This document shows positions 9,750 through 60,699 of a stretch of 64,000 bases of DNA, piece by piece. The notes below the pieces were generated by a model. The model was given only the letters and a program-made list of their open reading frames with translations. It was not told where the DNA came from and ran no database searches. Origin of the DNA: Blasia pusilla (lineage: Eukaryota). Position 1 is the first letter of the stretch; each line of letters begins with the position of its first letter. The translations under genes were made by a program, and so were the position numbers. The stretch lies in NCBI GenBank assembly GCA_050084515.1, contig CM114271.1:35650001-35714000 (forward strand), written 5' to 3'.

Positions 9750-10820
9750 ATACCACACTTATTATATGGAAACGTCTAGAGAAGGGTGCAAGAGTGTAAG
9801 ATCTCTTTGGAGGGATCGACAAGGAGGTTAGCTGTAGTATAGCAAGACAATAGATGGATACATCAATCTCTCTTTGGAGGGATCGGCACTAGTTTGGTCG
9901 CTATATTGTATGTAGGAGTGAGTGCCCATTGGGATTTCTCTATGGAGCGTGATGAGGTTACAAGGCATGTCTCACTCCAATTTTTGGAGCACTTGTGCCT
10001 TCTTTTTCCCAACTTGTTACCCACGTCGGCCATACAAGGTTACTAGAGTTCCTTATCGAGGAACATTTCCTTATTGCATTTGGGGGCGTAGGTTTGGATC
10101 ATATGCGGATCATTCATTTGGTCGAAGAAAGTTGGCCTTGTGAAGTAGTTAAGTGCTAGACGAGGTGATAGTTTAGTTGACTCTATAGGTCTATATTATT
10201 TTGGGAGATGATGAAGATCTTGCAACACTTGCAAGAGAACATCAGTCCTATTCTCCAACTTACCTTATGGAGAATGTACTAATCTTGGATGATTCTTGGG
10301 TACAAGTTGTGACACGTATACATGAGGTTGGTGCATAGATAAACCCAACGGTGTTTTTTTAATATGCAAATGTAGGTTCATAAGTACTCTATCCACGTTT
10401 GTGGTGGACTGGCTTAGTGCCACATAAGGTTTTGAGGAGGGCCTATGCAAGAATGGAGTGTCCCTCCAATTTTTTTATGGATTCCATTCTGGATTGTGGA
10501 CCTCCATCAAAAGCAGTAAGGCACAATGATGGACCTCTATTGATAGTGATCAACAGGGTTGGCATGCCATGGGCAGCCTTTCACACCTTTGTGAATTTCC
10601 TCGCTTCCTATGTATATAAGGAGGCCAATTTTGGCTTGGTTTGGGATGACTAGGCACAATGGTTGGTGGAGCCCAACATTGATGAGAGAGAGTATTTAGG
10701 GTGTGATGGGATTCCTCACGGGAGTAACAACAATATTATTACTATCATAGGCTTCCCAATGTCATGTCTTGGGTTAGGCACTCGACTTGAACTTCTTGAC
10801 ATGGATTCTTAGCTTAGGAG
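9750..10820 (+). pseudogene. Decayed C5-cytosine DNA methyltransferase domain, probably retrotransposon-borne
   Basis: Motif I DLFGGI (9800-9817) and a duplicate LFGGIG (9870-9887); motif IV SWPCE (PC at 10136-10141); RSILFWEM; motif VI YLMENV (10261-10278); motif VIII GS*VLYPRLWWT; motif IX EPNIDERE..MGFLTGVT; motif X LG*ALDLN. Several stops and frameshifts. Confidence 0.85.
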
Positions 10821-10894
10821 TAGGGTTTGGTTTGACATTGAGAGTGCACACATGTGAGAACTATGGTGTTGTGAGAGAGATTGGATCTTATTTT

Positions 10895-11022
10895 ATTGGA
10901 GATATTTTGGTATTTCTTGTCTCGTTGTTTGAATGCCATGAGTTAGCATGGGATCGTACGTGTTTATGTGTGTGTTCGTTGATAGCCATATATGTTGTAT
11001 AGCGATGTGTATGCGCACGACA
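10895..11022 (+). repeat. LTR-like 3' terminus ending ...GCGCACGACA
   Basis: About 12 substitutions and one 2-nt indel versus the reverse complement of 15193-15318. The last 30 bp or so also match 60031-60062. Confidence 0.85.
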
Positions 11023-12267
11023 GATTAGTTTGAGGTGATATGTCGTGGTCTTGATGACTTCATCTCAGATTTTGACATGTGGTATGATTTTCAAGAGATA
11101 TGAGCTCATAAAAATGTGTAATAAGCATAAAGTTGGATGAGCAGGAAGAAATTAGTTCAACATACCATAAAAGGACTACTCATAGCAAAATATCTTTGAA
11201 AGAGGATCAACAAGTGGCACCATTATCATATAGAAAGCAGATGTCATGTAGTTGTTTAGGCCAAAAAATATTTGGCTTTCAAAGTTGAAGCAAATATCTA
11301 AGAACAATTTTTTTAAGTGCAAGAGAGAGTGTTGGTAAAAAAATTATGCAATATTTGTAAAAACTCCACTTGCGAAGCCAATACGTGAAACAAAACTGAT
11401 GTTGTTAGATCATAATATTGTTGCGTGAACGTATGAACCAGAGTGTGCTAATCTTAGGGCAATGTCAATGAAAATTGAAAGGAGTGTGTTACTAGATCAT
11501 GAACATGTACACTTGCGTTTATTAGGTGACTAAGGCAAAATTTGACTACGATAGCCCATGGCAGCAAGAGAGGATGGATTGTCTGACTACTTTAGAGTGG
11601 ACATGATCTTTGCACCACCTTTGGGCACTATTGACTTACTTTGGAGCTAAGTTTTATAACTAATTGAAGAAATGCTTGGGGAAGTGAAGAAGTTTGAGAT
11701 GGCACCATTATCCACTACAGAATTTTATTCATATGAACAAATAATGTGTTCTTGCAGGCAAGGACTCTACTCTTACTAGTATAAACAATATGAGGAAGGA
11801 ACTGGCTTGAGAATATGAATCTAGGAAATCCTTCAAGAGATGGGGTATGTAGATAACATTGATAAACTAAGAAAGAATTTTAAATGAAAACTGTATGAAA
11901 TAAATCCGTCCATCAAATTAGGTTTTATTGCATTGGAGATAGCATAAATACAACAAAAAATACTTGATATAGAAACGATCTAGTTTTCCAAGATGATGGT
12001 AACAAGATGAAATTTGCCGAAAATTGATATTCAAGGAGAAAGTAACAAAGGAAATTCGATGCACGAAACATGGGATTTGAAGAGAAAATGAAAGTCACCC
12101 CACAATCCTGGGCATAATGGATGATGGGGTAATGTTTAATTTGTGACCCACCACAACTCATTTCCCGCGCGTGCATGTACTAATCATTCCCTCATGCACT
12201 AAATCTATGTTGATCATCAGGAATACAAATCTCCTCACTGTTTTTTAATGTGTACTAGGTCCCTGCT

Positions 12268-12882
12268 ATGAGTGATGAGTTTGCTAGACTACTTCTTGCT
12301 AATATACCACGAGAAGAAAATCCTATTCTAGTACTGGACACAAAGCCAACCAAAGCCCAAATGCAATATGCAGATAACTTGGGTGTACTCCCAAGTGCCT
12401 GGGAGAATGGTATAACAAAACAACGAATGTTCAAACTCATAGATGAAGCAAAATGATGGATTGAGGAATTCAAAGTTGTCCATAACGCACTACCAGCATC
12501 AGGTGATAAAATAGCCTTTTTCATTCATTTTACTATTGTTATCTTAGAAAAATCTGGTGCTAATTTTAGAGAATGTGTTCTTTGGTTGCAGGTGTGCAAA
12601 AAAGAAGCTCTGGTGTTCAAATCAATACAATTCGATCCTTCAAAGTTAACTAAGAGAGTTGCTACAACTAAGTTGATGGCTATTTCAGGAAAGATAAGAT
12701 TTCCCCAACTTACTAAATTGAGACATTTGCTTCTAGTTCCACTTGAGACAGTTATTGATTTAACATCCGCATATGCTACAATTCTCATTCAGAAGATGGA
12801 TGAAACACGTAGAGCTGGACTGCTACTTAATATGCAGCCTGATCCAACACCTCCAACAATCATTAACCTTGATGATTTATAG
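12268..12882 (+). pseudogene. Unassigned 205-codon frame broken by one TGA (probable decayed exon)
   Basis: ORFs 12268-12456 and 12586-12882 are in the same frame with only the stop at 12454-12456 between them. A T-rich tract plus TAG|G acceptor lies just upstream. No family recognised. Confidence 0.4.
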
Positions 12883-13621
12883 ATACTATCCACCTTTGTT
12901 ACTATATAGGTTACTTCCTTTTCTCCACACATTCAATTTCTTTCAATCCTTCTTAAAATGATTTAAAATCATAAGTTTACTTTTGTCCAACTAAAATTCT
13001 CTCCATCTAAATTTCTTCTTGGTGAGATCCATCATTTTCATTAGGGATCTTATAATTTTTATTTTATTTTTTTATTGTTGTTCAAATTTTCCCTCTTATC
13101 TTAAATGGTATCCTCTATCCTCACCTTATCCCCTTCTTTACTTTTCACAATAATCATAATCATAATCTATTATCATTAAATTTCACTTCTTTGTTATTAT
13201 CAAAGATCTCGTATGATCCTTTGCTTTGAGCTCCCATCTTTTCTACCCTTATCTCTCCTCCTCCTTCCTATTTCAACTAAAAAATCGATATAAATACCTC
13301 TATAATAGCCAAAAGGAAAACACTAGAAGAAGGCTTATCATGCAAATCCAAATTGGAAAAGAGGATATTTGAGCTTTCAATACTTACATCAGAGGTATTA
13401 TATCACTTGGTTAGTTTGGTGGTTGCAAGGTTTTCATGATGGATCATGAGAGATAAATGCCGGACTTGACATTCACCGTGATTTGGTGGCTATTCAAGTC
13501 GATGAGGCCAATGCAATTCAATTTCTTATATGCATTTTTTGAGAAGTTATACATGCAACTAAAAAATCAGCAAGTCTTCTTGGATTTTTTGGATCCTTCT
13601 ATGTATAAGAGACAACCATTA

Positions 13622-13870
13622 TCCATACTATTAACATAGGACGGGGTTAGAGATTCCCTCCTACTCATATCGACACTTGTCACATGGGGGATTTCTTGGT
13701 GGTGACACATGGCAACATATGAATTAAATATAATGAATGAATGAAAGGGGTGGAGACGTTAGATTGACCTTCTACGAGTCTCGAAGGATGGAGGTGCGTT
13801 TCGTTCCTCTGTACCCTATTTTTTTTCCCAAGTTTCATGTCATCCGTGCATAGCACGGGAAACGCTCTAG
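13622..13870 (+). mobile_element. Non-autonomous mini-Helitron (249 bp)
   Basis: A|TCCATACTATTAAC... 5' end; CCGTGC-ATA-GCACGG hairpin followed by CTAG|T. Confidence 0.8.
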
Positions 13871-15192
13871 TCTATTCTCATCATGCTACTTTTTTAGAAT
13901 AAAATATTCTTAAATCAACATCTAGCACACATCAAGATTAACCCATGGGTTGCCCACTTTTTACTATTGCATAAGATCATATGTCTCACTTTTAAGTTAG
14001 TTCTTGCTTATACCTATTTGTGAAGTGACTCTCTATCTTAAAAATCCAAGCCCAACCGAAGAAATATTAGGTGCAATCTTTAACTTGCAATTGCCTTACC
14101 TCAATATTCACCTTAACTTCCTAGATTGCATACAGACAAAGGTCATTTTTATAGACTTGATTTGGTTCATGGACTTAAGCCCACCTCATGGACCAACAAG
14201 TCAGTTAATAAAATCCATGGTAAGGATGAAAAAGTTTGTGGGGATAGAAAAGGAAAGTCCATAGTAATGTATGTTCATGTCCATGTCATTAAGGGACTTG
14301 TTTCTTTTTATGCAATCATAACAACTACTCTTGATTTTACTATCTGTATTGAAGGTATTCGGGTTCTTGATATCCCAATTGGATTCATAAGATATGTATA
14401 CATGCTCTTTGATGAGGCCTCACTATGTCATCTAAAGGATCCCTAAGTTGCTTATACAATTCTCTCCCAAGGTTTTCCTCAACATACTTCCTACTTTCCT
14501 TGCTCTTGTCCTCCCACCACATAATTCTTTCATCAATTGGCCTTTTTTGACACATCTTTCATTGCAAAACTTGGTCAACTTCTTCATCCAAATACTACTC
14601 TTCATGGAGATAACAGGGTTTGGATTTCAAAAAAAGCTACTCGGCCTATTGCCTTTTGGAGGCATAGGATTTCCCAGGGTTCCTCCCTACTCATACCTAC
14701 GCAAAAGCATAGACAAGTTTTTGGCAGCGTTAGGCTTTGGTTTCCCCTTTCATGACTTCAAGGTTTCTCCAAGGATATACACCTATCTTGATGGTGCATG
14801 TGGCCCATGTCTAGGAGGTAGATGTATCCTTCCACTAACAATTGAGATCTACTTGAGATCTTCTTCTACATCCTACACAAGTGATTCTACCTCCTTTTAT
14901 TCAATTGCTCACATTAAATCTTGATTAACTTTTGAGAATTTGCAAGAAATCCTATTTTCCAACATTCTCTCCAGAACAACCTTTGACACTTATTAAACAT
15001 GTATAAGAGCGCACATCGCATATTTGAATTTTTCTTATTCTTTCTTTTCATCTTTAATTTCACAAAGTCTTTTTTTCGCAATATCTCAGTTACGTTTTGG
15101 ACTTCCTTATCCTTCTCATCTAGATGTGCCTAATTTTGTATGTAGGGTGCTTATTGATTTGAAGGATATTCATCATATTCTTTGATGTGCAT

Positions 15193-16814
15193 TGTCGTGC
15201 ACATACACATCGCTACACAACATACATCGCTGTCACCGAACACACACAAACACGCATGATCCCATGCTAACTCATGGCATCCAAACAATGAGATAAGAAG
15301 TACCAAAATATCTCCAATCTACCCTTAACCCTAAAAACTCTGACGAGTGCAATCACGCTGACGTGAACTCCGAGATAGGTCGATTGTGGCACCACGAGCT
15401 CAAGGAGGATACCGAGAGGCCGTGCCACAGAGACCTGCGCCTTCATATGCGGCTCAGCAGCAGCCCCTTACGATTACTTGTTGGTCATGTGGTGGAGCCC
15501 ATCATCAGCGTGATTGCACTCGTCAGGGTCATGGACGTGTGCCTCAACATGGAGGAGGAGATGGTGCTGCACCAAGAGGTTATCAGTGTGACTATTGTTA
15601 GAGGTATGGTCATACACGCGCCACGTGTTTCAGTTTACACCTTGAGATACGTCTGGACCAAGGGCCAGAGAGGGCACCAGAGCAAGTAGCCGGTCCGGGT
15701 GGGCCTAGAGATCATGCTCCGGGCGGCTGGTTTAGGGTTTGAACAATTTAACCCTAAAAATTGCCTAGCAATGGCAGTTTTGCAAGATTGATCATAACTT
15801 TTTGCTCAAAACTCTAAATTGTGCACTGTTTGTTGCACAGCGTGCACAACTTCATGATCTACGACGACATTAAAAAATATTTTGAATCTAACATTGCAGT
15901 AAAAACTGACAGGGACTGTCGTAAAGCCCAATGTTTCTTTCTCCTACACAAAATTTGGCAGCGCTTCCTTGCTGATTTCTCCCAACGAAAATGTAAAACC
16001 TGTGAGAACACAAATCAGAAAGCTACATGGTGCTCCCGAGAGCACGGGCATGGAGCAATCCACCCCCATACTCAATTCCTATCGAAAATTCGGCAGTGCT
16101 TCAGTGTGCCACTCTCCCATACAAAAAATCAGCAAAGCAAAATAGCAAACTCGCACGGCTCTTGCTCCGGTGAGCACTCCCATGAGCCATGAAGCGGGGA
16201 ACACGGTCCCCCAACCTGCACCAAACATTGATCAACCAGCGAGCTCCCCCATAAAGCTCTCTCACTCACTCATTCTCTCTTTGTAAAATAAGATCCAATC
16301 TCTCTCAACACCATAGTTCTCACATGTGTGCACTCTCACATGTCTCTCTCAATGTCAAATCAAACCCACTCTCCTAATGAGAGGCTTGGGTTACACACAC
16401 AAGGCAAGCAAGACCATAGCTCCGCCGCCTCATGCCAAGAGGTTCAACAAAGAGAGAATGAGCTCTCAAGCTTTCTCTCCTTGAGGTATACCCCTCCCCT
16501 CTCCCAAGCTCTCTCCATGGTAACCTATGCTCCCAAGTCACCTCCTTGGCTCTTGACCTAATGTAGGAGGTCAAGGGCCACTTGCCAAAAATAGAGAGTT
16601 GATCATATACTCAAAATGGTACTTATCTAAAATAGGAAGTTCCTCAAAATGGCTCCAAATGAGCTGAAACGAAGGGGAGAGCAGGTTTCTCGGGGCCTGA
16701 GAGAGCAGGTTTCCCAGGGCCTGAGTAGGTCATCCTCGACCTACTGAGCCTGTCCACCACTACTCACGAAGGCGCTCTACTAGATCTCACCGATCTATCC
16801 TAAAAGACGTGACA
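15193..16814 (-). mobile_element. Ty3/gypsy-type LTR relic containing a gag fragment with two zinc knuckles
   Basis: TGTC...GACA termini flanked by a 4-bp direct repeat GCAT (15189-15192, 16815-16818). Plus-strand frame from 15386 gives CWSCGGAHHQRDC and CDYC*RYGHTRATC. Shares its terminus with 10895-11022. Confidence 0.7.
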
Positions 16815-16859
16815 GCATACAGAGGAGAATGAAAAAAACCCATGATACAATTTGAGAGG

Positions 16860-17280
16860 AAATGATATCAATGGCTCGTACTTTAGGATATACTTTAGGG
16901 CAAGAGAAACTACATGTTCTAACTTCAACAACACAAGGAACTTATCTAGTATAAGTTACATCTCAAGATGACTTTCATCTATTTAGTGATATGATGGTTG
17001 TTAATCCCATACGTTTCGACTTTCGTGTGTCGAGTTGTACATTCAAAAGATTCTATAGCTTATGTATGAATAATAATGAAGGAGTTAACTTAAGTAATTA
17101 GTATGCATGTGTGTTTTCATACTTTCCTCAAAACATATGCTCACCATCCCTCGGAGAATCATCAACTCATTCCTTCTTATGCGTTTTTCAACACTTTCAT
17201 AGTATAATCCAATGATTTTCTAGGCACCTTGTCGACAAAAAAAAGATATTTCAACTCAAAGATTGAGGCCGAAGCATTTA
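16860..17280 (+). mobile_element. Heavily decayed RLE-type non-LTR retrotransposon 3' fragment
   Basis: Nucleotide similarity by eye to 21150-21620 (GTACT.TAGG.TA.AC..T.GGG.AAGAG.A.CTACATGT; ATACTTTCCTCAAAACA). Confidence 0.45.
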
Positions 17281-23460: not shown

Positions 23461-26400
23461 TCACTCCGCGCCCGTTTGCTTGCATAAACCTGTGCCCTCA
23501 TCACAGAAGCCGTTTCTGTCAAGCAGTTGCTCGGGTGGTGCACTCAGCAGTGGAGAAGATGGACTTCCATATGCATTTCTTCGGCTGTTGCCGCAACCAA
23601 GGCTTTTCCTTGTGTCCATACCTGTGGTTGGATTGGTTCCACTTGCATACTTGCACAAGGCCTGTAGCCAGGTCACAGGAACAAGAACAGCATCACACAA
23701 CTGGTCCCAGAACACCGACACTAACGTGACAAACCATCACCAGCAACTCTCCAACAAAGAGACTGTTGTTCAATACAAAGTGATCGGTAAGTTGTTCATG
23801 GTAGTTGCAAAATGGTGACGAAATTATGGATGAGATTGTAACTTCATCCACATTGGCAAGTATTGACGACACTGGTGGAATACATGCCTGCTTTTGTGCC
23901 AAGTCCAACACTGCATCACTGAAGTCGGCCCCTACTATCGTCGCCTTGCCAAGGTCACTGCGTGTTAGCACAGCTCTGACAAGAATTGCATCCGTAAAAT
24001 TTGCCTCATTCAAAACCTGCAACAGTCCATTACGATGTCATTTGCTGCCTACTATGAGAAAGTGCAGAGAACATCTTCTGAAAATTGGTAGCAAGGCATT
24101 GGTGGAATTTCTCTGAAGATCTATAACTGGCAGGCACAACAGTAGTGTGTCAGAGTTTTGACCTTATCATTAGTTCTTTGTTTTTTTGTAAAGACGGGCA
24201 GATTCTTTGAAGACCATTTAGCGTGCTCAATTTGCAGGGCAGAATCTGATGTACCCAAGTGAAGAAGATAAATGATTGGTACTAAGGTACCTCTATAGCA
24301 CCGTGAATAACCTAGATGAAGTCATCCCATAACTTGCATATAAATCAACAAGAGCTGGCAACCACATCCAATTCTCACCATGCGATCCATCAAAGTGTCA
24401 CTCAAGTCCGCTCCTGCAATTGTTTAAACACTACGTACATGAGATGCAGTCAAACTCAACCTTTCTAATCTTCAATTGTGTTGATACTCCCCTTGAATCT
24501 TATTCCCAGTTCACTTAAAAAAGGTAGCAGACACCAAGACCTCACAAAATTGAAGTTTTCGGAGACTGAAGTACAAGACTCAATACCAGACTTATCAAAT
24601 ATGAGCAGGAAAACTAATTCCAGGAATACTTGGTTTTCCATGAAGCTGGATTAAATATTTACCTGAGAAGTTTGTCTTGAATGCGACAGCCTTCTCGAGA
24701 TAAGCTCCATTGAAAGGGCAGTTACTGAAGTCTGCTTCCCTCATGTCTGCTGATGTGAAGTTCGCCCGACTGCATCAATCCCAACTCCCTTCGAATCAGT
24801 AATCTAACCAACTCTTTTGCTCGATTATCCCAAGCATCTATCCCTCACAAAAATCGAGTTGCAACTTTGGGACGAGGACAATTTTTTTCAGATCCTTAAG
24901 CAACAAATCAGGACTTATCAGATGTCAACTCAGCTCATAGACATCTATCCACTAAGACCTGAAGTGTACCACAATCCCTTCAGCCTTATCCCAGATATGG
25001 ATCACCAAACTCACACCCTTTCGGAATGTAGGTTAACTTCTCATTACCTGCTTACTTATATAAGGGAAGAGAACAAGCAGATCCCTATAAGATGAAACGA
25101 CCAAATCTCACCAGAAAGAGGGTAACCGGATACTTTGGCAGTCTGAGCACGGCAGGAATCAGCCAACAGCTGGGAAGAGAAAACAGCCATTCAGACTGGG
25201 TATGATAATCTTGCTTGCAGATCATATTGTTGCAGAGCTTTTTTCTTTTGATCAAGACAGTGGAGATCCCATAAAACCAAACCTTCGAATGTTAAGACAC
25301 AGAAGGTCTTTGGGCAGACTGAACACAGCACCATTACCAGTCATCTTCACAGCTGGGGAGAGAGTTGGAATTTGAGTTCTATTTTTTGGTCCACATGAAG
25401 AATATAGGCCTACGAGACCCATTCCATGTGCCTGTAGATTACATTGCTTCCGACAGGTACCCTTATGTTGAGGTTTTCAAGCACATTTGTTTGGGTTTCC
25501 CCTTAAAAGGGATTTCCTTTTTCAGCGAAGGTCTTGGAGAAAATCCAAGTTCTTAACCTGGTACCATCATCAAGTCACACGCACGTAATGCACGTAAATG
25601 TTCTCTCTTCCTCGCAAGGGTCATCCATGCCCTAGGAAGGGGATGCTACGCTCCTGGGGTTGAGACCACCACACTAGGCATTGAACGCGTGAGCTCCTCC
25701 ACGAGGATCTTCAACGAGTTCAGTTCCACTAGTTGGCGATGTACTGCCCGAGAGAGAACAGCTATTCTGACTCAGTATGGTTAACTTGCTTCCAACTTCT
25801 ATGGATCCAGAACTTTTTCCTCTTAATCAACAAGCAGACTAGCTTATTGCTGCCTCTACTACGGCATCAATGCGCGGGTTCTGTCGAGCAGGTGTGGTGA
25901 CATGAGCAATCATAAGAAGAGAAAGGTTGACGGATTCTGTAATTAGTGATGTATGAGGTGCATACCGGAAATTTTCTTTGGCATGTACTGTCTTCCTGTT
26001 CCACACACATGAGCTCCAGTTAGCAGATGGCATCCTCATTCCCATTTTCAAAGTGCTGGTGTGTACAGAATCCACATACGACTGAAATCGACAGAAAACG
26101 AAGCGTATGGATGAAGGTTAGGAGCTCTTCGATGCACATGCATTCCACAGTATGTCTTTCTTAAAAGTTGATCGAATTAGCATCTGGGAAGCCGAGTTAT
26201 CAACAAAATTGGAGTCCTCCACCGCAAGAGATAAAAGGTTTCGAATTGGCTCCGGGAGGAGTTCACCTGAGATCGGCAGACCCATACTGAGCGGCAGAAC
26301 CCACTCCAAATTCCCCCCGGATGTCAGCTTCCAACCTATTCAGCTCGGCACCAGCTTTCATCCCCGTGCCCATCACTACCGCAGCCAGCATTGCTGCCAT

Positions 26401-31156: not shown

Positions 31157-34100
31157 TTACACACGATGTGTGGGCACCGGCACTGGATGGGCAGGCTTTT
31201 GACTAACACGCACAGAGCGCTGGCGCTGAGAACTCCCGGAATGAATGCGCCGGGTCTCCTTCGACATCGTACTGTGTCTGATACCATATACGGCATAGAT
31301 GAACAATCCCAAAGCAAGCCACACAGATACTCGAATCCAGGTCCACATCCTGCGAACGAGCGTCGAGTGTTAGAAAGTCTCACATCCAGCTGTTATTGAT
31401 TCATACCATGCATCAACTGCTTTTCTTACACTACATTCCACTTCTCTCAGAATGATAACTGGAGTGATCAGACCCTAAACGCCCTGTTCAGCAGGTTTCC
31501 TGAGCTCGTTCCCTTAATCCTTTAGGAGGAAACCACATTTGTGATCAGACAATTATCGTCCTGTCCAGCAGGTGAGTATAACCATCCTTTCCTGAGCTCG
31601 TTCCCTTGATCCCTAGGGAGGAAACCACATCTGTAGTTTACAAAGACTAACGATCTTCATTTCAAGCATGCTAGCAATCCCCCATGGAACGAGCCAAACG
31701 CTAGAGACTTACTCCAAATTTACCAACAGATACACATTGATGAAGATTGAAGCAACAGGTAACACAGGAACCCAGGGACATTGGAAACCTGCAATTCAAT
31801 GAGCATCCATAGACACAGCTACAGTGTCAGTATGTATACACACTCCATTTGCGCTAGTCACAGATTTCAGAATTAGCACTGATCAACTGTAAGCATAACA
31901 CACGTGCTACAATGGCTGGGTTTAACCCTTTGGACGGGTGCTTGCATTTGGAATGTCAGTTGTTTAAATAAACACGCTCTTCTGACGAAAAATGACGAAA
32001 AATGACGAGCAATTCAATACGAAGTTCGGGGTTATTGAAAGATAACAAACTGCTGGAAGAGACCATGGACTACCTCCTGAGTCACCAAATTTATGGCGGC
32101 CTTCATCTTGTTCTATCAAAGATAGAATGATTATCCCAGCAAGAAGACCAAGGCAACCAAACCCCATCATCCCCCATTTAATAAACCTGAAGAGTAACAG
32201 TCACCAAAAATGAGCCTCTGTTTCCATAATGGATGCTTCAGGTGAATAAATTCATCAGCCTACGGCAGAGAATGATGCACATACAGAATCAATCTCAATG
32301 TTCCTCTCATCCCTCGACATATCAATTATCGTTCCTCAAATTCCTTTTTAACAAGTATCTCCAGATTCCAGATGCAAGAAAAGAATATGGAAATCGGTAT
32401 GTAAGATGGAAACGCACAGCAAAAACAAGGGACTTGATGGGTCTATGGGAAACAAATCCAAAAAAACAAAAAACAAAAAAGAGTTTGATAATAGAAAGAA
32501 GGTGAACTTCTTCCCAAATACAAGAGTTTGGTAATAGTTGAAAGGTGAGCTTCTTCCCACTCATAATTGAATGGGAACTTTATTCGGGCAGCAAGAGAAG
32601 TCAAGTAAAGGGTTCTTCCCCAGTTTACCTCGGAAAGTCGAGAGAAAAACCGACACTGAACAGCAGTACCCCAACAAGGACAGATCCAATGCCAAGAGCA
32701 GCAGCCCATCGGCGTGCTTCTTCCCTTGTCATTTCTGCAAGGATCACAACTTTCACTATCAATCATTACAATTACTTCTGCGGCTCCGTTGTACGTAGAG
32801 AAGATCCCCAAGGTCAATTGCAGTTTCACCACATGATCTTGATTGAAAAGAGCCCTTAACGTACTGAAGACTAGTTGGAATTCAGCCAGTTTTAGCATGC
32901 TGCAGAAATTCAACTGGGTCATTTGTCCACGCTCATCAGCTACATTCTGAAGTTTCGAATATTTTGACCTAGTTTAAATTCCTGACAAGTGTAATTTTCT
33001 TATTCCAGCGACATCTTTCACCCTAACTTCATTTAAGTGAAAGACTGCCTCCCTCTGTATTACGCTCTTGTTGCCAAGGACTATCCTCATGTCCCAAATA
33101 CAAAAAGCCTCATTTTGAAGTGAAAAGAAGAGAAGAAACCTCAGAATCGATCTATTGCAAACTCACACTGGAAGATAGACAGGACAGTAACATCAAGTAC
33201 CTGGGATTGGGGACACCATTGGAAGTAGTGGGTCCTGAAGGTTGCTCTCCGATATCTTTGTTATATCTGAGATGTGACTTTCGTCATCAGAACTGGCACC
33301 TGAATCCGATGAATCTTCAAAGTTTTGCAAGAATGACGGCATTGATGACATGGAGGACTCTGACAGCAGCGAAATAACTGGAGAGAAATAGCTTGGCCTT
33401 CTCGCCAACATGGCCAGAAAGGTTGGCTGTTTTTGGGGTGCTTCCTCCACAGCTGCAATCTGTGCCTGGGTTGACGTAGCGATTTGTTGAGGAGCAGCCT
33501 CGGTAACAGTGACAGGATCCTCAGGTGGAGCGAATCTCAGTATCAGTATAGACACCCCCACAATAGTGAAAGCGAATAGTGTACCCACACTGACCTGTAG
33601 TTCACAAGAAGAGCACAGACCAAGAATCTTACTCTCGGATCTATATAACCTTGCAACTCTGAGCTCAGTTTTCTCAAGCGGCGGTTTAAGAAATTACGCA
33701 GAACAAAAAAGGGCGGAATAAAATTACATACTTCGTATGAAGACACAAGGGGGCAAGGAGCTTGTAGTTTTTCCTGAACTATAAGAATTCTTTCCAGAAG
33801 TCGTGACAGAGAAAATGAAACCATTTCAATTTCCTCTGAAAGCCATGTTAAAAACAGTTGCTTGGGTTACCCCAAGAGGAATGATTACTTTCCATGTTAA
33901 AAACCGGGCAGATTTGCAGATGTGAGAAGGAGAATTTCAGACAACAAGACCAAATTCAAGATGCTAGAAACCATCAAAGGTGCCGGACACAGTACACAGG
34001 CTAGACTTCCAATGTGATGACACCCTCAACCAAAACTATATCTGAGAGAACTGTTGAGACACACTAAAGATAGATGTGCGTTAGACAAAATTTACCACTG

Positions 34101-38509: not shown

Positions 38510-41500
38510 GTTGTCTGTAGTGGTAGAAAAGGCAGTGGTCGCCACCGACTCAACTCCTCTCTTCTCCACTCCACTCCGCTGCCACCTCTCTCTCCTCTCC
38601 GTCGTCCCCTCTCCTGTACTCCTCTCTCTCTCCCCTACCCTCGTGTCTCCTCAGCAGTCAAATCGTTCCCCGGTCATCGAAGCGCATCTACGTCGTTGAC
38701 AGAAGCCCAACACAGTCTCCCCAGGCTTTTCGTCCGTCCATCGGTGAAGAGAAGAAATCATCGGTGTGAGACGAGAAAAATCGGGTAACCTATCAGGCGG
38801 GCTGCGAGGCCCGACCTGCGATCAACTTCGCTGAGCTGAGATAGAACCGTTGAGCGACCGTCGACGGGAGCGATCGAAAGGAAGATCGTTCAGGCTAGCT
38901 CCAAGGACAACACGGCCGAATTGCGTTATTAAAGAGGTCGCGCTCGAAGATGAGCGAGAGCAGCTCGGGGACGTGACACTGTGCATAGAGTACCCTGCCG
39001 ATTTAAAGGGGCCAAGAAGCCCCCCAGCGATTCCGTGTGCGCCAATCTACGGCGCCCCTGGACGGCATGAATGAAGCACAATGGTGCGCCAAAATATCGG
39101 TCGAACTCCCAGCCTCCACAGATCCCCGAGGGCCGCTCGAAAACGGCGATCCGATCCCCTGCTCCGTGGGCCCGACCATGCAGTACTCTCAGACTACGTA
39201 GACTCCGTCGCTGTTTTCGCCTCTCTCACTGAGATTACCAGCTGGATAGTAGGCAGGCAGTTGAGCAGGGCGGCCCCGGCGATTGGAACCGACGATCCCG
39301 CGGCCCCGAGGACTGGGGGTACGAGCGCGGTGCGTACATAGGAAAGGAGCCGATGGAGCTGGTCCACTCCCGAGTCCAGACGCGCACTTTGGGGCTGCCC
39401 GACAGGAGCTTACGCGAAAACGCGCCGCGCGGTGGGCCCCCCCCTCTTCAAAGTTCACAATGATCTTCCCTCGGCTCCCCCCCGGGGAGTCCTCCCATCC
39501 GCGACTCTCCAATGCCACAAGCGCGTCTCACAATCATGGCCGTCCCAATCATCGGGTCGTCGACAATCGGAAACGTGCCCCCGCCGGCCGCTCGCTCATA
39601 TGTTCAGCCCCCCGACCCAGCGGTGAGAGAGACTCGCTGCACACGTCCGCGACGGATTTGTTCCATCGCCGGTGTACGTTTCCTCCACAGATTTCCGCAC
39701 CGGAATTAGAAAGAAGCCTCTGGAGTGAGCAACGATCCATTCTCCCGCAGACTTCAATACCGAAATCCGAAATAAGTTTATGTTAAATAAAGGACGCTGT
39801 CTCATCGTTCCTCGTCGTGGTCGGAACACGTTTCCAAAGACGGAGCCCGTGGAACTACTACTACGCACTCCTCCTAAAAAAATCATCCGGGCAGATCTTA
39901 GCGGAGTATTATCATCACTTACCCTCACACGAAAGCCGCCTCGCTTGTTCATCCTCCATCGTCTTCCTAGTCAGCTTGGCTGATGTCTGAACGATCCAAA
40001 CACCACGGTGAACCCGGCAGGAAGAACTGGAAGTGGATCGATCCATGACTGAAGGGGATGAAGCTGGGGAGTACTTTGGTGATCGATCCATTCGCTCTCT
40101 GTGTCCGTTTTGCTGTCAGGGTCCAGAGTCCAGACGTCTAGCGACGACGAAAATTTCGCATGAAAACAGAGAGACGTACACGACAAGGATTACTGCTCAA
40201 CGGCATGTGATCCCTGTTCCGGATATTGGAGCCATTCATTACCTGTGTTTTCTGGAACATCCGTTCAATCCAGGTCTTGATTACCGAGCGATGTTCCGGA
40301 GCGATGAATTTCACATCTTCACAAGTTTCCGCTCGCCCCGCTACATCGAAAAAAGTGTCGCCATATCCGTAGCCCCGGTGGACTCTTGACAGCGTGCCAT
40401 TTCCGAAACGGCCTGCTCAGCCTCCGTGAGTCAGTGCTCAAAGGTCGGAATCGAAGGCCTCGAATATGCAACCCATCAGGGTCAGATTCTTACCGCGCAC
40501 GCAGATATCGAACGCAGCGCAGCCGACAAGCTTTGAGGGAACCTGACGGGATTACCGAGTACAGGAAGGCCACCGCGGCTCCAAGAAATCGCTCGCATAT
40601 CACACAAGACTGCGCGGAAAAAGATATCGGGAGCAATAATCAATAATCAAACAAAGCTATTCATTGCTCTGAAACAGCGGAAGGAAGCTCTTCAAAAGGA
40701 AAAGGAGTTAGAGAAGTCAAAACTCCTTTTCAAACCGACCGCGCAGCGCCACCCCACGCCCAATGATCAGGGAGATCCGGGCTAACAATTACGGAAAATC
40801 ACAAATATCAGTTTCGTTTAAAATTGCCCCGGGAAAAAGGGTTTTTCTTTGTAAGAGGTATCTGCAAACCGGTTCGAGTTCCAGACAATGGAATACCGGT
40901 TACCGTTCAAAACTCCCCGGACCCTGCCAACGCACGTTCTTGGCCGGGGACTCGTCGGAAAGTGAATTAGGGTGGGGTTAGGACTGCGTAGTTAACACAT
41001 CTCCACTTTGTTATATACGAAACTAGTCTGAGCATCCTTTCAAATTTTTTATAACTATTATTTATACTATATAAATAATAGTCTTTTTAATCCAGAAGAT
41101 CATATGTGGATAAGGGGGTATTCAAGTAGCGGGCGGTCAGTCAGTATTTAGGGGTGGGGTGGGGAACATGGAAGGGACACTGCATCTATGGTTAGGACCC
41201 TTCACTTCCATAACTAGTAAGGACCGGTGAAATAGATATCCTACCTAAAATTGAGGTTTCCAAGCACATATTATCATAAGATGTTGCCATTGGTGCATTA
41301 GAACTAAATTCATTGATATTGAGGGTGAGTTTGGCTCACTTGCTACATAAAAAAAACCATTTTTTCCAAAAAATAATTTCATAGAAAGATCAAAGGGCCT
41401 TAAAAACATAAAATTACTTTAAAAAAATATATGCAATATCAAGAAGCTCTCGAGAAAACCACCTCAAAAAGACATATATATATATATACATATCACAAAG

Positions 41501-47726: not shown

Positions 47727-48323
47727 AGAAGATGCTGAGAGTCCCAAAAAGAGATATGGACAGGTCCATGACCCTCAGAGTCACTCAACGAGCAACTGAC
47801 TCAACTGACAATAGAATCGATCACTTGCTACAATGCGTCAATAAGAAGTAGACCAAATGGAGCAGGTTTACGCGTCAATTGGAAGATACATCAATTCGGC
47901 ATATTAAATCGAAATGAGCAGGAAGACAGATAGAAAAGGAATTTAGTGAGGAGTCGCACCTTACAAGATAAATGAGAAAACGTGCGTGGATTAATTTTTC
48001 ATTAGGAAGGTAGAAAGGTAGAGCAAATGGAGAAGATGCTGAGTGTTCCAAAAAGAGATATGGACAGGTCCATGGCCCTAAGAGTCACTCAACGAGCAAC
48101 TGAACTGACAATAGAATCGATCACTTGCTACAATGCGTCACTTAGAAGGTACAGCAAACGGAACAGGTTAACGCGTCATATAGAAGATACAGCAATTCAC
48201 CATATTAATGCGACAGGAGCAAGAAGACGTAGAGAGAAGAAACTAGTAAGGAGTCGCAACTTACAAGATAAATGAGAAAATTTGGTAGCTTTATTTGTCG
48301 TTTGGAAGATAGAGCAAATGGAG
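47727..48323. repeat. Tandem duplication, about 304-bp period, 2 copies
   Basis: AGAAGATGCTGAG..CCAAAAAGAGATATGGACAGGTCCATG starts at 47727 and 48031; both copies end TAGAGCAAATGG. Confidence 0.9.
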
Positions 48324-49733: not shown

Positions 49734-49804
49734 AACGGTCTTAAAAGACTTGAATTGATGACTCTTAAATTAAGAGTCATCAATTCAAGTCTTTTAAGAC
49801 CGTT
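49734..49804. repeat. Perfect 71-bp palindrome (35-bp arms, 1-nt centre)
   Basis: AACGGTCTTAAAAGACTTGAATTGATGACTCTTAA-A-TTAAGAGTCATCAATTCAAGTCTTTTAAGACCGTT. Confidence 0.95.
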
Positions 49805-55800: not shown

Positions 55801-56180
55801 CACAGCTCATGCTAGTCCGCTTGAGACTACCTTACGAAGGCCCGGTCCAGATAAGCTCCAGCGTCGTCACCGGGCCACGGATCGCAATTTCTCTCCATTG
55901 CGAAAGGTCACGCGCATCTGGACGGGGGAGCTGCGATCTTCTACAGACTCGCTCATCCTCTTCAGTTTCGTAGACTATCTTATTCTTGACGGGTAAGCCC
56001 TGGCGCCATACGTGCGCAGATTATTTCATTATACCGCATGATTCCAATTCCATCCACTTCCGCGTGTCCACCGGTCAGACCTGCAAGCGCACGCGCGTTT
56101 GAACTTTGAAGAGCCGCACCCATGTGCGTCGACCAATACGCAAGATGACAGAGGTGACTGATGAAATCACGCACATTCTC

Positions 56181-56334
56181 GGATATGCACTACCTCGAAT
56201 GCTTCACGGATATGCTTGCAGGGAATCCCATCATCGGATATGCCTGTTATGAATCCCATGATCGGATATACCACTGCCTGCCTACGATACGCGTGTCTTG
56301 CGACATAAGCGGATGTACTTGTCCAAGCATATCC
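56181..56334. promoter_or_regulatory. Cluster of five P1BS (GNATATNC) PHR-binding motifs
   Basis: GGATATGC at 56181, 56208, 56236; GGATATAC at 56264; GCATATCC at 56327. Motif match is direct; function is inferred. Confidence 0.55.
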
Positions 56335-56506
56335 CGGGGACAGAAATGGGATACTACAGTATTACTACAGTATCCTCTTTCTTCCTCCTTTCCGGGGTCA
56401 ACTTTTTTTTAATAAATAAATTTATATGTTTCAAATTTTTTTAAAGATGGCGAGCGAATTTGGGGTATTTTAAGGAAATTGAGTACAATTCCAAAGACTA
56501 GGCATA

Positions 56507-56694
56507 TCTATATTATTAAGAGAGTATGGGGTTAAGGAAATTGGTGTTGACATTTGTCCAACATAAATTTGTCCTTTCAAACCCTTCTATTGTTGACAAG
56601 TGTTTAAGGAGTGCTTAAATTAGAAGGACCAAAGACTTAAAGGGTGCCAAGGAAATGTTCTTCTCGGCGGTGCGTAGCACCGGCATCATAGTAG
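56507..56694 (+). mobile_element. Non-autonomous mini-Helitron (188 bp)
   Basis: A|TCTATATTATTAAG... 5' end; CGGTGC-GTA-GCACCG hairpin followed by GTAG|T (one change from CTAG). Confidence 0.7.
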
Positions 56695-57055
56695 TGTTTT
56701 TTGTACTTTGGACTAGTGTAGAGCCTATGCTATGGAGGGAGAAATAGTCATATTGCTCATAAACATTTTCTTGCCCATTGAGTGTTTTGTGTAAAGTGAA
56801 GAGACTCTTGTGAATTACTAAGCCATCCTCCCTTAATAGAAGAGATTCATGTAGGGTTTACAAAGATTATTTAGGATCCCCCTTACGAATTGTATGCTCT
56901 TCTAAAGGGTTGTTAAAAGCAGTGCTCTTTATCACATCTGAGTAGCCGATAGGCCGAGATCTATCGTGGATAGGCGTAGGAGCCAGCGGACTATCTTGAG
57001 TGTAACTTTGTCCCACGGTGTCGGATGAGGTTGAGGATAGGTCCATTGTGTCAGG

Positions 57056-58691
57056 GTACTGAACCTGGAGTAAGCTGTAGGTACGCTTTACTCCGAAATG
57101 TCCCAACTCCTCATGGGCATGTCGCACTATACGTGCTCGCTGGGAAGGATGAGGTACCACTCGTATCCTACCATCTCCCCATACCCGCAAAATATGAGTC
57201 CCCTCCCACCTGAACCTCTTGGCTCTCTGTAGGATCCGATCCCGCTCCCTAGCACTCATTGTACTCGCAATGACGCTAGTGCGCAAGAACTCCACAACCT
57301 CCACATCGTCATGGATATCACGACCACCTGTCGCCTCCTCACTAACCTCCGGATCCAAAGACTCATCATCCAACCCCACCACTGGAGTCATCACCTGTGG
57401 CTTACCTGCCATAGTTAACCAACAAAGATAGGCAGATGCATGCCATCCGGGCACCATCTCCTCATCACTCTCTCCGTGCCATCGAGCTCCTGTGTCGTCT
57501 CTCTGACTCGGACATGGTTTACGACTCAACCCATCCGCATCCTAGTTCAGCCGACCTAGCCTATGAACCACCTCAAACTCATACTCCTGTAGTAATAGAG
57601 CCCACCTCCACTTGGAAAGCTTTCCCGTAAGCTTGTCGGACTTCATCAACCACCTCAACGGCTGATGATCAGTGATAAGTGTGAAAGGGTTTCCGAATAA
57701 ATAGCACCTGAAATGTGCCACGGCCCACACTGCAGCCAAGCACTCTCCCTCGTAGGAGCTGTACTTCGCCTCTGCAATGTTGTTTGATCGGCTCGCGTAA
57801 GCCACAACGAACTCCCTCTCCTCATCATCCCTCTGAGTAAGCACTGGTCCTAGACCCAACATGCTCCAATCCGTAAGTAACTGGAATTGGCAACCCCTAA
57901 GCGGTCTTGTAAAATGGGTGAGGACGTCAACCTGTCCTTGAGCTCCTGAAATGCTCGCTTCTGATCATCTCCCCACAACCAAACCTAATCAAGTCTCGTC
58001 AACAAGGTCAAAGACTTTGCGATCGCACTAAAATCCTTGACATACCGTCGATAGAAGTTCGCCAGTCCAAGAAATGCTCGGACTTGACTCACATCTGTAG
58101 GGCGTGGAATCTGCGCAATAGCCTCTACCTTCGTCTGCTGAACGCCTAACCCACTCGGGTATATGGTGTGTCCCAAGTACTCAATCTGCTTCTGAAAGAA
58201 TCTGCACTTGCCTGGATGTAACTTTAGTCCATGTAACTGCAATCGCCGAAACACCTCCTCCAAGTGTCGCTCATGCTCCTCAACCGTGGAACTGAAGATA
58301 AGAATATCATCTATGTAACATCGTACAAAATCCAAGCCAGCCAGAATCCTATCCATCACTCTCTGAAACTCTGCATGCGCGTTCTTCAACCCAAATGGTA
58401 AGAACCGCCACTGATACAAGCAATCTCTCCCGAATCGATCTATCCCCCAGAATGCTATCTTCTCGTTGTCTTCCAACCTGATAGGAAGCTGATGATAGCC
58501 AACACAGAGATCTAAAGTACTGAAGATCTTTGCATGCCCTACCGCATCAAAGATCTCCTCAAGAGTAGGCATGGCGTACCGATCTGACCTCGTCTATCGG
58601 TTGATAGGACGGTAATCTCCACACATCCGCCTATCCGTCCAATTGCCATACATATCCTTCTTCGTCGGCATGACTGTGGCAGATGCATACT
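57056..58691 (-). pseudogene. Gypsy pol fragment: reverse transcriptase, RNase H and first half of the integrase zinc finger
   Basis: YASATVMP.KKD...RMCGDYR, LDLCVGYHQ, LPFGLKNA, YIDD, VAYASR...YSSYEGECLA...TDHQPL, HEELGHFGVKRTY. Stops and frameshifts present. Confidence 0.93.
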
Positions 58692-59850
58692 GGGGTACAG
58701 CGGTTTGTGGCTAGATGTATAGTATGTGACAGAGTGCGAGCATCCTTCAATACTCCCACTCCGCAGTTATATCCTTTGCCGATTATGGGTTTAGGTTATC
58801 GATGGAGTTTAGACTTTGCGGGACCTTTGCCATTGACGGGGCGTCATCATAGGTACGTGTTGGTCATGGTGGAGCATTTCTCCAAGTGGATAGAGTTGGT
58901 GGCACTACCAAACAAGGCGAGCAAGGGAACAGCTTATGCGTTTCTAGATCGTGTGCTTAGTCACTTTGGTGCACCGGCGGAGGTGTTGACTGACCAGGGT
59001 ACCGATTTCAGGGGAGAGTTTCAAGCCTTGTGTGATCAGGCACTGATAGATCACCGCACCACGTCCAGAGATCATCCTGAGGCGGATGGGTTGGCGGAGA
59101 GAGTGGTACAGACGGTGAAGAGAGGATTGCGCAAGTATGGCTTGCAGCGGGGACAGTTGAGGGAGTGGGACCTACAATTGCCATGGTTGGCCATGGGTTA
59201 TCACTTTAGTCGGCAGGCATCCTTGGCGTCATTTTCACCGTACTTTTTGCTCTTTGGGAGAGAGCCAGATTTACCTGCAGCGATTTGACGTGGCATGGCG
59301 GAGGTGTTAGATCTTGATGATCCAGATGTGTGGGTACAAGCATGTTCTCAGAGGGCGGAGGTTTTTCGTAGAGTTATGCCTATGGCCTTTGAGAACTTAG
59401 CTATTGCTCAGCATAGAGATACATTGAGGTACGCGACCATTCATGGAGGAGGTTATCGTCCAGGGATTAGGAGGTTTCATCTTGGAGATTACGTGTATTT
59501 ACAGCAAGCGGCACCCACGACACTAGATGTCAATGCAGGGCGCACGGTCCTACGTGTGCGCAAGGTATTACCGATCGGAGTCCTCATGTTGGAGGGACGG
59601 GATAGTATGGTTTGGAAGGATCATGTGCGCAATTGTGCGCCATGTCATCTTCCGAACGTAGATGGGACGGTGGATCTGAGCTTGGCAGTGGTACCTGCAG
59701 GGTTGAGGTGTATGTTGTGCGGATCTGCGAGGGGTGTAGCCACCATGTTGGTATGTGATGGTTGTTCTCGAGGGTGGCATATGTCATGTCTGACCCCCCC
59801 TCTTGATGTGGTTCCCACATGACGATGGACGTGTCGGAGATGTGTATAGG
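58683..59850 (+). pseudogene. Gypsy integrase core with C-terminal PHD finger
   Basis: CIVC, SLDFAGPLP, TDQGTDF, HPEADGLAER (DDE); then CMLC...LVCDGCSRGWHMSCLTPPLDVVPT*RWTCRRC (C4HC3). Two in-frame stops. Confidence 0.92.
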
Positions 59851-60699
59851 GTAGTAGGTCATGTTAGAGAGATATGATATTTTCTATCTGGAGTTGGGGG
59901 GATCCAACTGCCAGCTAGGGGGGTGGTTGTGTGATCTCCATGCATATGTATGAGTTGATTTTTGTACATGTGTGGATCGACCGTGTGTGGGGAAGATCGG
60001 TGTTGTGTGGTGTAGATGTGACCAGCAATCTATGTTGTGTAGCGATATGTATGCGCACGACATCTTCTATAGTGTTGAATCTTTCCTTGCAAGCAACGTA
60101 CATTGATTGTCAACTTCATTGGAGGATGGCAGGAATATAACGATGACTCTGTGAATTGGTATATATGGCAGGTTCTTTTCCTTTTCCAACCCTCCATCAT
60201 ATTCTCCACAAAGTCCTTTCTTCCCTAAAAACTCCAATTAGCACCATGGACTCTCTCCAAGGGTGTGGGCGTTGTGTTTTCCTTGTCTGAAAAGTGAGTA
60301 TTATTCAGCTCACGTTCGGCTTTCAAGTCAAGGACTTTTTAGACTACATCTTGCAACAGAAGTTCAACTATAGCCTTTACCCCTCGCCATAGTGTGAGAA
60401 TACAAAGGATTTATTGCTCCCTTTATTGCCTTGCGCAATAAAGGCTATCGGGATTTGAAATTGGAGTGGACGTTGAAACATGAGACTTGTTTACAAATAA
60501 AAACCAAACTCCAAATTAGACGTGGTCGAAAGTAGGCAAAGTTGCCTAGGTCAGATCGTTCAAATCACGGGATCGAACCATGAGAGTGTGGCACTAGCGT
60601 CAGAATAGATTCCATGAGATTTTTACATAAAGCATTTCGCACTCTCAACACAACCTCCACGGACGCGACCATCTAAACAACAATAAATGTTATCGATTC

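Follow-up and report, generated by a model that had tools for sequence, protein, structure and literature searches.

The window analysed here, a stretch of 64,000 nucleotides (nt) from Blasia pusilla (assembly GCA_050084515.1, contig CM114271.1, positions 35,650,001 to 35,714,000), contains three separate stretches that we read, with a probability of about 0.85, as dead and rearranged copies of one high-copy retrotransposon family of the Ty3/Gypsy type that encodes a DNA methyltransferase (DNMT) and an integrase with a PHD finger. As a preliminary description made from the letters of the window had proposed, each copy retains a different module, and all three modules match the proteins of one family: copy 1 keeps a DNMT domain, copy 2 a piece of gag, and copy 3 the pol domains. 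Their coordinates are collected in Table 1.

The three copies are joined by a 31-nt terminus. A search of the whole window on both strands with the 31-nt pattern, allowing up to three mismatches, returned exactly three matches, as compared with none expected from 100 shuffles. Copies 2 and 3 have TGTC...GACA ends; the motifs opposite the terminus are related, and both copies are enclosed by a 4-bp duplication. Further matches of the 10-nt 5' motif at 22138, 50089, and 62451 have no extended likeness to the element and are attributed to chance. For copy 1, neither a left end nor a target duplication was found (the 3' flank is GATT). When the window was compared with itself, copies 1 and 2 had a stretch of 209 nt in common (10814-11022 versus 16377-16284 plus 15318-15193), whereas the likeness of copy 3 to these copies was limited to its last 40-45 nt, plus ~10 nt at the start. 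This comparison revealed no direct repeat inside copy 2 or copy 3. The terminus at 11022, 15193, and 60062, the related opposite ends of the gag and pol relics, and the flanking GCAT and TCTT repeats thus stand as the preliminary description had given them; it was also right that the 60-kb copy overlaps the others very little, but the measured length is 40-45 nt instead of its figure of ~30 bp.

Among the 362 stop-to-stop open reading frames (ORFs) of at least 60 amino acids (aa) in the window, Pfam domains of retroelements are confined to copy 3, where reverse transcriptase (RT), RNase H, H2C2, rve, and PHD were found. For copies 1 and 2, 131 ORFs of at least 25 aa were scanned as well at E<=1, with neither a DNMT nor a gag match, a null result that, taken alone, would have counted against the preliminary description. 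Pfam is too insensitive for these relics, and relatives of the family were needed as probes to reveal them. The rve-PHD frame of copy 3, translated through its single in-frame TGA as X and searched against a protein collection, has 297 longer relatives, of which 120 were listed; all figures for protein relatives (P-numbers) rest on these 120. Metagenome contigs were also scanned, the query being an alignment of 11 relatives; 562 stretches were confirmed, and 80 loci (L-numbers) were kept from among them. Sixteen of the protein relatives were compared with the window by tblastn, and the order of domains was determined by Pfam in 15 protein relatives and in loci that include L001 and L010.

With these probes, the DNMT relic that the preliminary description had seen ending at 11022 was confirmed by the DNMT ORF of L010 (E 7e-53). 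Positions 9749-10846 are collinear with positions 9962-10972 of that locus at 36-52% identity, and motif I, motif IV (WPCEV), motif VI (ENV), and the C-terminal MGF...DLN region can be recognized. All seven of the DNMT-bearing protein relatives, together with P0041, in which Pfam makes no DNMT call, match positions 9852-10828 on the + strand through their DNMT part. The relic is nearest to the type represented by L010, L019, and L004 (44% identity versus 27-31% for other relatives). It is disrupted by several in-frame stops and frameshifts and is truncated on its 5' side at 9749. Motif I (LFGGI) is matched twice in a row, at 9749-9832 and 9867-10076, an observation that indicates a small internal duplication. 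Copy 1 would have arisen by deletion of everything between the retained DNMT domain and the 3' region, which is followed by repeat B. The ORF at 12457-12879 (+, 141 aa) was considered as a fourth relic and rejected: it has a weak match to the C-terminal region of the P0003 integrase (23% identity, E 3e-5 in a single comparison) and none to L001.

In copy 2, the relic of gag with its CCHC knuckle is matched by the gag-like ORFs of L010, L019, and L004 with E values from 1e-8 to 6e-14 (tblastn and tblastx), and none of the 16 protein relatives matches this copy by tblastn. The gag module named in the preliminary description is therefore upheld by these ORFs but its strand is not, because gag lies on the + strand, antisense to the ends of the copy. 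The first 28 nt of repeat A in copy 2 are identical to the consensus of same-species genomic reads that follow repeat B and two further nucleotides. The copy would represent an A...B unit that holds an inverted scrap of gag. Treating its 965-nt segment as a simple nested insertion is unsupported, as it lacks clean TGTC/GACA boundaries.

Copy 3 has the pol order RT, RNase H, and integrase (H2C2 plus rve) once its inverted segment is read on its own strand. This segment, in which RT begins at profile position 59, corresponds to residues 102-636 of P0003 on the - strand by tblastn and resembles positions 11313-12936 of L019, reversed, at the DNA level. The best relative of the rve-PHD frame is P0002 (76% identity over 99% of the query). 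The two pol pieces adjoin in the protein, at residues 636 and 641 of P0003, so that one inversion of a copy already deleted at its 5' side explains the arrangement: gag, the protease, the DNMT, the start of RT, and the second A and B repeats would have been lost, and a single inversion would have had its breakpoint inside the H2C2 finger. The modules of the pol relic had been correctly identified in the preliminary description; the strand arrangement, with RT, RNase H, and half of H2C2 inverted, had been missed. Further lesions are a frameshift that separates RT from RNase H, in-frame stops at 57542-57544 and 59286-59288 (TGA), and a premature stop at 59820-59822 within the PHD finger.

Table 1. 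Coordinates of the element copies, their ends and flanks, and the host gene in the window
Feature	Position	Strand	Evidence or remark
Pyruvate dehydrogenase E1-alpha, intronless 399-aa ORF	4982-6178	-	Pfam E1_dh, 4.6e-114
31-nt terminus	10992-11022; 15193-15223; 60032-60062	+; -; +	Pattern search
Copy 1, degenerate DNMT3-like domain	9749-10846	+	tblastn, L010 DNMT ORF, E 7e-53 / 2e-54 (sub-region)
Copy 1, 3' region common with copy 2	10814-11022	+	Includes repeat B ~10895-11022 and terminus 10992-11022
Copy 2, internally deleted unit of 1622 nt	15193-16814	-	TGTC...GACA ends inside GCAT duplication
Copy 2, GCAT 4-bp duplication in flanks	15189-15192 and 16815-16818		Letters of + strand
Copy 2, opposite end TGTCACGTCT	16805-16814	-	Pattern match
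Copy 2, repeat A	~16814-16378	-	
Copy 2, piece of common 3' region, 94 nt	16377-16284	-	
Copy 2, rearranged segment, 965 nt	16283-15319		Interrupts stretch common with copy 1
Copy 2, gag relic with CCHC knuckle CWSCGGAHHQRDC	15395-15727	+	gag-like ORFs of L010 (8162-8443), L019, L004
Copy 2, repeat B	15318-15193	-	
Copy 3, TCTT 4-bp duplication in flanks	56926-56929 and 60063-60066		
Copy 3, opposite end TATCACATCT	56930-56939	+	Pattern match
Copy 3, first 126 nt of repeat A (TATCACATCT...)	56930-57055	+	
Copy 3, inverted segment: RT (from profile position 59), RNase H, first half of H2C2	57056-58692	-	Pfam, tblastn
Copy 3, RNase H	57545-57964	-	Pfam
Copy 3, RT	57988-58593	-	Pfam
Copy 3, second half of H2C2 (CIVCDRV), rve core, C-terminal PHD finger	58683-59819	+	Pfam
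Copy 3, rve core (with second half of H2C2)	58674-59285	+	Pfam
Copy 3, PHD finger	59289-59819	+	Pfam
Copy 3, purine run AGGGGGG	59917-59923	+	Directly before B-like repeat
Copy 3, B-like repeat ending in terminus	to 60062	+	Terminus 60032-60062

The modules that are scattered over the window are found together on single elements among the relatives. L001 is nearly intact and has a first ORF (ORF1) of 1369 aa, one in-frame TAG, and a second ORF (ORF2) of 1047 aa. ORF1 contains two zinc knuckles, a DSG protease motif (Asp_protease_2, E 2e-4, under Pfam's cut-off), and a C5 DNA methylase domain (PF00145) with the motifs FAGIGTG, GWPCQG, and FENV; ORF2 contains RT, RNase H, H2C2, rve, and PHD. L010 has on one strand gag-like ORFs, a DNMT (PF00145, 7e-9), a stop, and then RT, RNase H, H2C2, and rve. 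In L019, gag-like ORFs, DNMT, RT, RNase H, integrase, and PHD lie between a TGTCATGACC start and a ...GCACAACA end with TACA at both flanks, and the whole is an A-internal-B unit with a single B. The inference that the parent element joins a methylation writer to a PHD reader on its integrase is borne out by L001 and L019, which hold all the modules, and these loci contradict the possibility, raised in the preliminary description, that a DNMT is always absent from full-length elements bearing this terminus. The proposed parent order of gag, DNMT, RT, RNase H, integrase, and PHD is likewise found in single elements, with the amendment that a protease lies between gag and DNMT. The CCHC knuckle and the aspartic protease upstream of RT are both present in L001; the window retains only the relic of the knuckle.

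H2C2, rve, and PHD occur together in almost every one of the 120 listed relatives of the rve-PHD ORF, and seven of these relatives also carry PF00145 together with RT, RNase H, and integrase. The named relatives are green algae (Pleodorina, Volvox, Tetrabaena, and Chromochloris). PF00145 was found in L001 ORF1, L010, L003, P0012, and P0047; in the last two, the DNMT precedes RT. A second layout, with the DNMT between RNase H and integrase, was observed in P0039, P0055, P0072, P0077, and P0106, which are more distant and chlorophyte-like. The DNMT of this second layout still matches the relic in the window (P0039, tblastn E 5e-12), which points to domain shuffling or repeated capture within a PHD-integrase lineage, as judged from the protein comparisons. 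Two still more distant DNMT-bearing loci, L035 and L047, are 35% identical to the L010 DNMT ORF in their DNMT part; they have a 0.9-kb internal direct repeat of 80% identity (7231-8142 versus 12206-13122), a layout unlike the A and B repeats described below.

An in-frame stop separates DNMT from RT at the same place in all six loci L001, L002, L003, L004, L010, and L019 (TAG in five and TAA in one; positions 5083-5085 in L001 and 11198-11200 in L010). The codon that follows is CAA or CAG in each of the six, L001 reading CAG TTA. A stop followed by CAA or CAG resembles known read-through contexts, and the conserved stop looks like a programmed read-through site that would place the methyltransferase on the side of Gag and the protease.

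When compared with solved structures, the PHD part has as its nearest neighbors the fingers of CHD4, PHF12, PHF21A, KDM5A/B, ATXR5, KAT6A, DPF3, UHRF1, and AIRE. Many of those PHD fingers read the unmodified tail of histone H3. The Chromo family has no match in copy 3, L001, or the 15 scanned relatives, where PHD (PF00628) stands at the integrase's C-terminal end instead; Phage_integrase, the tyrosine recombinase, likewise has no match in this set, where rve and H2C2 are present instead. For the DNMT part of L001, structures of DNMT3A, DNMT3B, and DNMT3C fill the first 29 rows (E 2e-7 to 5e-5), with M.HaeIII and M.HhaI behind. The DNMT of the element thus appears by sequence to be Dnmt3-like, which agrees with the Dnmt3 origin published for retrotransposon enzymes of this kind.

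The ends of the family are split direct repeats and not ordinary long terminal repeats (LTRs), in the arrangement A1-coding-purine run-B1-NN-A2-B2. In self-comparisons of the metagenome loci, repeat A (~340 nt) begins with TGTCATGACC and lies at the left end, with a second occurrence close to the right end, and repeat B (~115 nt) ends in the terminus ...GCACGACA and lies on both sides of the second A. A1 at 5859 of L010 matches A2 at 14606 with 94% identity; in L006, A1 and A2 are 86% identical and both B1 and B2 are present; in L014, B1 (3207-3322) matches B2 (3663-3777) with 95% identity. The inner junction reads ...ACA, then GC, AC, or GT, then TGTCA... in L001, L006, L010, and L014, L001 being known by its junction only, and the GC type of this B-to-A junction forms the perfect palindrome GACAGCTGTC. 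The purine run AGGGGGG stands right before B1 in L006 and L001, as it does before the B-like repeat of copy 3. The 31-nt terminus is the conserved 3' end of B: it reads ...GATGTATGTTGTATGACGATATGTATTCGCACGACA in L006, L010, L011, L014, and L019 and is more diverged in L001. The view in the preliminary description that the terminus bounds the element is therefore correct, with the qualification that the ends belong to split repeats. The copies in the window have the A...B form and not A-coding-B-A-B. Neither copies 2 and 3 nor the relatives showed a pair of identical, directly oriented long terminal repeats at their two ends. Target duplications of 4 bp are present in all three elements with both ends visible, namely copies 2 and 3 and L019, and at the ends of split repeats they show that insertion is by a DDE integrase and not by a recombinase.

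Two other explanations of these ends were weighed. The first is that an ordinary LTR has been misread: the true LTR would be B-NN-A (TG...CA, ~450 nt, with the purine run in front), and the A...B units would derive from circles or tandem forms cut open at the palindrome GACA-GC-TGTC, making the split repeats a permuted view. The purine run directly before B1, the CA at the end of A and the TG near the start of B, the resemblance of the palindromic junction to a circle junction, and the existence of both A-int-B and A-int-B-A-B forms would all fit such a permutation. No integrated copy, however, starts with B or ends with A; the left ends seen are starts of A next to unrelated flanks and the right ends seen are ends of B, the target duplications lie at the start of A and the end of B in 3/3 elements, and the usual TGG-type primer binding site is absent after A1. 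We therefore regard a permuted LTR as rather unlikely. The second explanation, that the terminus is a small independent element, such as a solo repeat unit, inserted by chance beside unrelated coding scraps, is largely refuted and hardly credible. Copy 2 is mostly non-coding, and in copies 2 and 3 the coding scraps run opposite to the ends, as a chance neighborhood might produce, but the terminus is found 180-450 nt behind the PHD stop in six independent metagenome loci, the target duplications of copy 3 and L019 enclose coding content, and the three scraps belong by their matches to one protein family.

Sequencing reads from the same species were compared with positions 56000-61000 of the window (one Hi-C run of DNA, of which ~1/100 was sampled, and three RNA runs, at a likeness of at least 80). 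The depth of DNA reads is ~4000-10000 over 56835-60174, as compared with ~2-8 in the cleanest flanking bins and up to ~40 in others, which suggests, as a rough estimate, the equivalent of some thousand copies of the family. Reads that link 57057 to 58683 on opposite strands (648) correspond to an uninverted, contiguous H2C2 finger, and the inversion is therefore restricted to copy 3 or to a minor share of the copies. Divergence from the window sequence at 57055 was seen in 3122 DNA reads. Past 60062, 7325 DNA reads continue into NN plus TGTCACGTCTTTTAGG..., that is, two nucleotides and the first 28 nt of copy 2, and hence the B|NN|A junction is common in the Blasia pusilla genome. About 1029 DNA reads link 60062 back to 56932 with GC (435), AC (249), GT (230), or AT (47) plus TG between them. 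The four types of junction letters are those to be expected if an ancestral CAGCTG had decayed from C to T on one or the other strand, and differences among copies are dominated by transitions, above all C>T and G>A. Before the last 40 nt, most genomic copies have the type of B seen in copies 1 and 2, as shown by reads diverging at 60023 and 60031.

In all three RNA runs, the favored direction of the reads flips exactly at 58672, the inversion breakpoint of copy 3, which means that, in both segments, the RNA keeps a single orientation with respect to the coding strand and derives from uninverted copies. If the libraries are of the usual kind, the RNA of the family is sense. Most RNA reads are <90% alike (2051 of 2688 in run X22), so that they report the family and not copy 3. 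The B-to-A junction is crossed by 93 RNA reads in run X23 and 71 in X24.

Several observations weigh against the favored reading. (i) DNMT and RT never occur on one and the same copy in the window, as the preliminary description had cautioned; an intact copy is likewise absent. (ii) The link between DNMT and pol in Blasia pusilla rests on the metagenome relatives and on the DNMT of copy 1 abutting the 3' end of the family. (iii) The overlap of copy 3 with copies 1 and 2 is no more than 40-45 nt, which implies at least two subfamilies. (iv) The proteins closest to copy 3, P0002-P0011 (62-76% identity), have no DNMT in the ORF. (v) Pfam makes no PHD call in L010 and no DNMT call in the broken ORFs of L019. 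(vi) The copy number is rough, coming from a sampled Hi-C library at the permissive likeness given above. (vii) For a split-repeat element with a DDE integrase, the standard two-jump scheme of reverse transcription does not yield A-int-B-A-B; with the purine run in front of B it predicts B-A-int-B-A, which was never seen. A candidate route for restoring the ends would be for circular or multimeric cDNA to be opened at the palindromic B|A site, which fits the forms seen.

The third and fourth of these points could also be accommodated by sister families with no chimera in the genome, in which copies 1 and 2 would come from a DNMT element without its own RT, integrase, and PHD, or from a non-autonomous derivative, and copy 3 from a DNMT-less element sharing only the ends that the integrase recognizes. 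The ~10 nt at the start and the last 40-45 nt that copy 3 has in common with the others, the missing DNMT in its closest proteins, and the genomic predominance of the type of B seen in copies 1 and 2 all speak for such a separation. Against it, L010, L019, and L004, which have ~70-74% DNA identity to the pol of copy 3, carry a DNMT upstream of RT on the same element, and it is exactly these three loci to which the DNMT relic of copy 1 is nearest. The closest database proteins are ~1030-1100 aa long, start ~100 aa before RT, and look like calls of ORF2, which would lack a DNMT because they begin past the conserved stop. Wholly separate families are accordingly quite improbable, and the caution about sister families in the preliminary description holds to the extent that copy 3 falls in a subfamily other than that of copies 1 and 2.

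On the favored reading of one family, the intact form, judged from the near-intact relatives, comprises ORF1 (Gag with CCHC knuckles, an aspartic protease, and the Dnmt3-like methyltransferase), the stop, and ORF2, in which RT and RNase H are followed by a DDE integrase that includes an H2C2 finger and, at the C terminus, by a PHD finger. Production of ORF2 by read-through of the stop would cause the methyltransferase to be made together with Gag and the protease, in excess over RT and integrase. The methyltransferase may methylate the new DNA of the element itself, an activity proposed and tested for retrotransposon DNMTs in the literature. The DDE integrase would insert the unit at its TGTC/GACA ends, producing the 4-bp target duplications, and the PHD finger may tether the integrase to a state of the histone H3 tail and so bias the sites of landing, by analogy with chromodomains.

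A host gene in the window encodes pyruvate dehydrogenase E1-alpha. Its best named relatives are from Riccia (85%), Sphagnum (85-86% over 89% of the query), and Calypogeia and Ceratodon (77%), with lycophytes and seed plants following the liverworts and mosses; there is no near-identical match, and the protein looks by sequence most like those of bryophytes. A broader picture can be drawn tentatively, and we hold it to be possible but not probable: that of a land-plant (bryophyte-like) genome in which a Gypsy lineage is present in some thousand transcribed copies, with split repeats at a palindromic GACA-GC-TGTC instead of LTRs, a Dnmt3-type methyltransferase in the abundant Gag-protease product ahead of a leaky UAG, and an integrase PHD whose closest relatives among solved structures read the H3 tail in its unmodified form. 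If this were true, the element would deposit 5-methylcytosine on its newly made DNA and select chromatin with a particular H3K4 state. Host DNMT3 enzymes combine reading of the ADD/PHD type with Dnmt3 catalysis, and such an element could be a source or a sink of the host machinery for de novo methylation in early land plants.

Other features of the window include exons of an amino-acid permease (AA_permease, AA_permease_2, and AA_permease_C) spread over ~6.4 kb on the - strand (31160-37582), with a G+C-rich stretch (56%) at 38001-40000 upstream of the first permease exon, and an ORF with pentapeptide repeats at 23696-24037 on the - strand (PF00805, 1.3e-7). Near-perfect palindromes are present at 3490-3565 (76 nt, 97% self-complementary) and 49734-49804 (71 nt, 99%). 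A repeat of ~80-110 nt occurs in three copies at 3636-3918, and a ~300-nt unit in two tandem copies that are 84% alike at 47727-48313.

Retrotransposons with a cytosine methyltransferase are rare, and they bear on the co-evolution of mobile elements and host silencing. The family in the window satisfies the usual description of Ty3/Gypsy elements in its pol order, in the Gag knuckle and protease of its relatives, and in its TG...CA ends with a short target duplication. Chromoviruses are Gypsy elements with a chromodomain at the integrase's C-terminal end, which presumably tethers integration to a state of chromatin; the likeness to the present family lies in having a histone-tail reader at this position, and the difference is that the reader is a PHD finger here and a chromodomain there. 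The repeat layout resembles that of DIRS-like elements of the Ngaro and PAT types, which have A1-internal-B1-A2-B2 repeats, use a tyrosine recombinase, and are not known to make a target duplication, whereas the present family encodes a DDE integrase, ends in TG...CA, and is flanked by duplications of 4 bp.

Retrotransposons bearing PHD fingers have been noted before (PMC6673714, PMC8557442, PMC9940879, and 10.1101/2021.11.30.470311). REM1 (Gypsy-7a_cRei) of Chlamydomonas is described in PMC9940879 as having an accessory PHD finger in a Gypsy polyprotein, with a suggested role in targeting insertion, and LTRs composed of "subparts," the left shorter than the right. The passages of PMC9940879 that concern it report no DNMT, and a legend places PHD before the integrase, whereas here it is at the integrase C terminus; among the 120 listed proteins, chlorophyte relatives of the rve-PHD frame of copy 3 have 45-50% identity. 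EpiLTRs, as outlined in 10.64898/2026.05.21.726589, are alike in pairing a DNA methyltransferase with a chromatin reader but differ in the domains used (DAM, a DNMT4-like DNMT, and a chromodomain).

The closest known system is KnitGypsy-Dnmt3 of Klebsormidium and the streptophyte Gypsy-DNMT3 elements (de Mendoza et al. 2018, PMC5890265), the latter so named in 10.64898/2026.05.21.726589 and also mentioned in PMC12344493. According to the text and the Fig. 4 legend of PMC5890265, they have a Dnmt3-like methyltransferase inside the Gypsy polyprotein and A-coding-B-A-B repeats, "same as a DIRS retrotransposon"; that text also proposes self-methylation of retrotranscribed DNA and shows de novo CG methylation by retrotransposon DNMTs. 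Compared by published description and not by sequence, the present family shares the Dnmt3-like domain within the polyprotein (L001 ORF1, L010, and others), the A-coding-B-A-B repeats (L006, L010, and L014), and a streptophyte host. The host of KnitGypsy-Dnmt3 is described there as a charophyte alga with few copies, whereas here the host gene looks like that of a bryophyte and the reads point to roughly a thousand copies. In its main text, PMC5890265 does not refer to a PHD finger, to a stop separating DNMT from RT, or to target duplications; its figure may draw them. The literature found on these elements, the figure and most supplements of PMC5890265 aside, contains no combination of DNMT3 with an integrase PHD, no ORF1 DNMT before a conserved stop, no target duplications, and no land-plant host. 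The streptophyte Gypsy-DNMT3 kind is already published, and the family in the window belongs to it. The copies in the window are themselves dead and without functional weight; what the case does is to place this kind in a genome with a bryophyte-like host gene, at very high copy number and with family transcripts, and to add to its known features a PHD finger at the integrase C terminus, a conserved stop with the methyltransferase on the Gag-protease side, and 4-bp duplications at split repeats.

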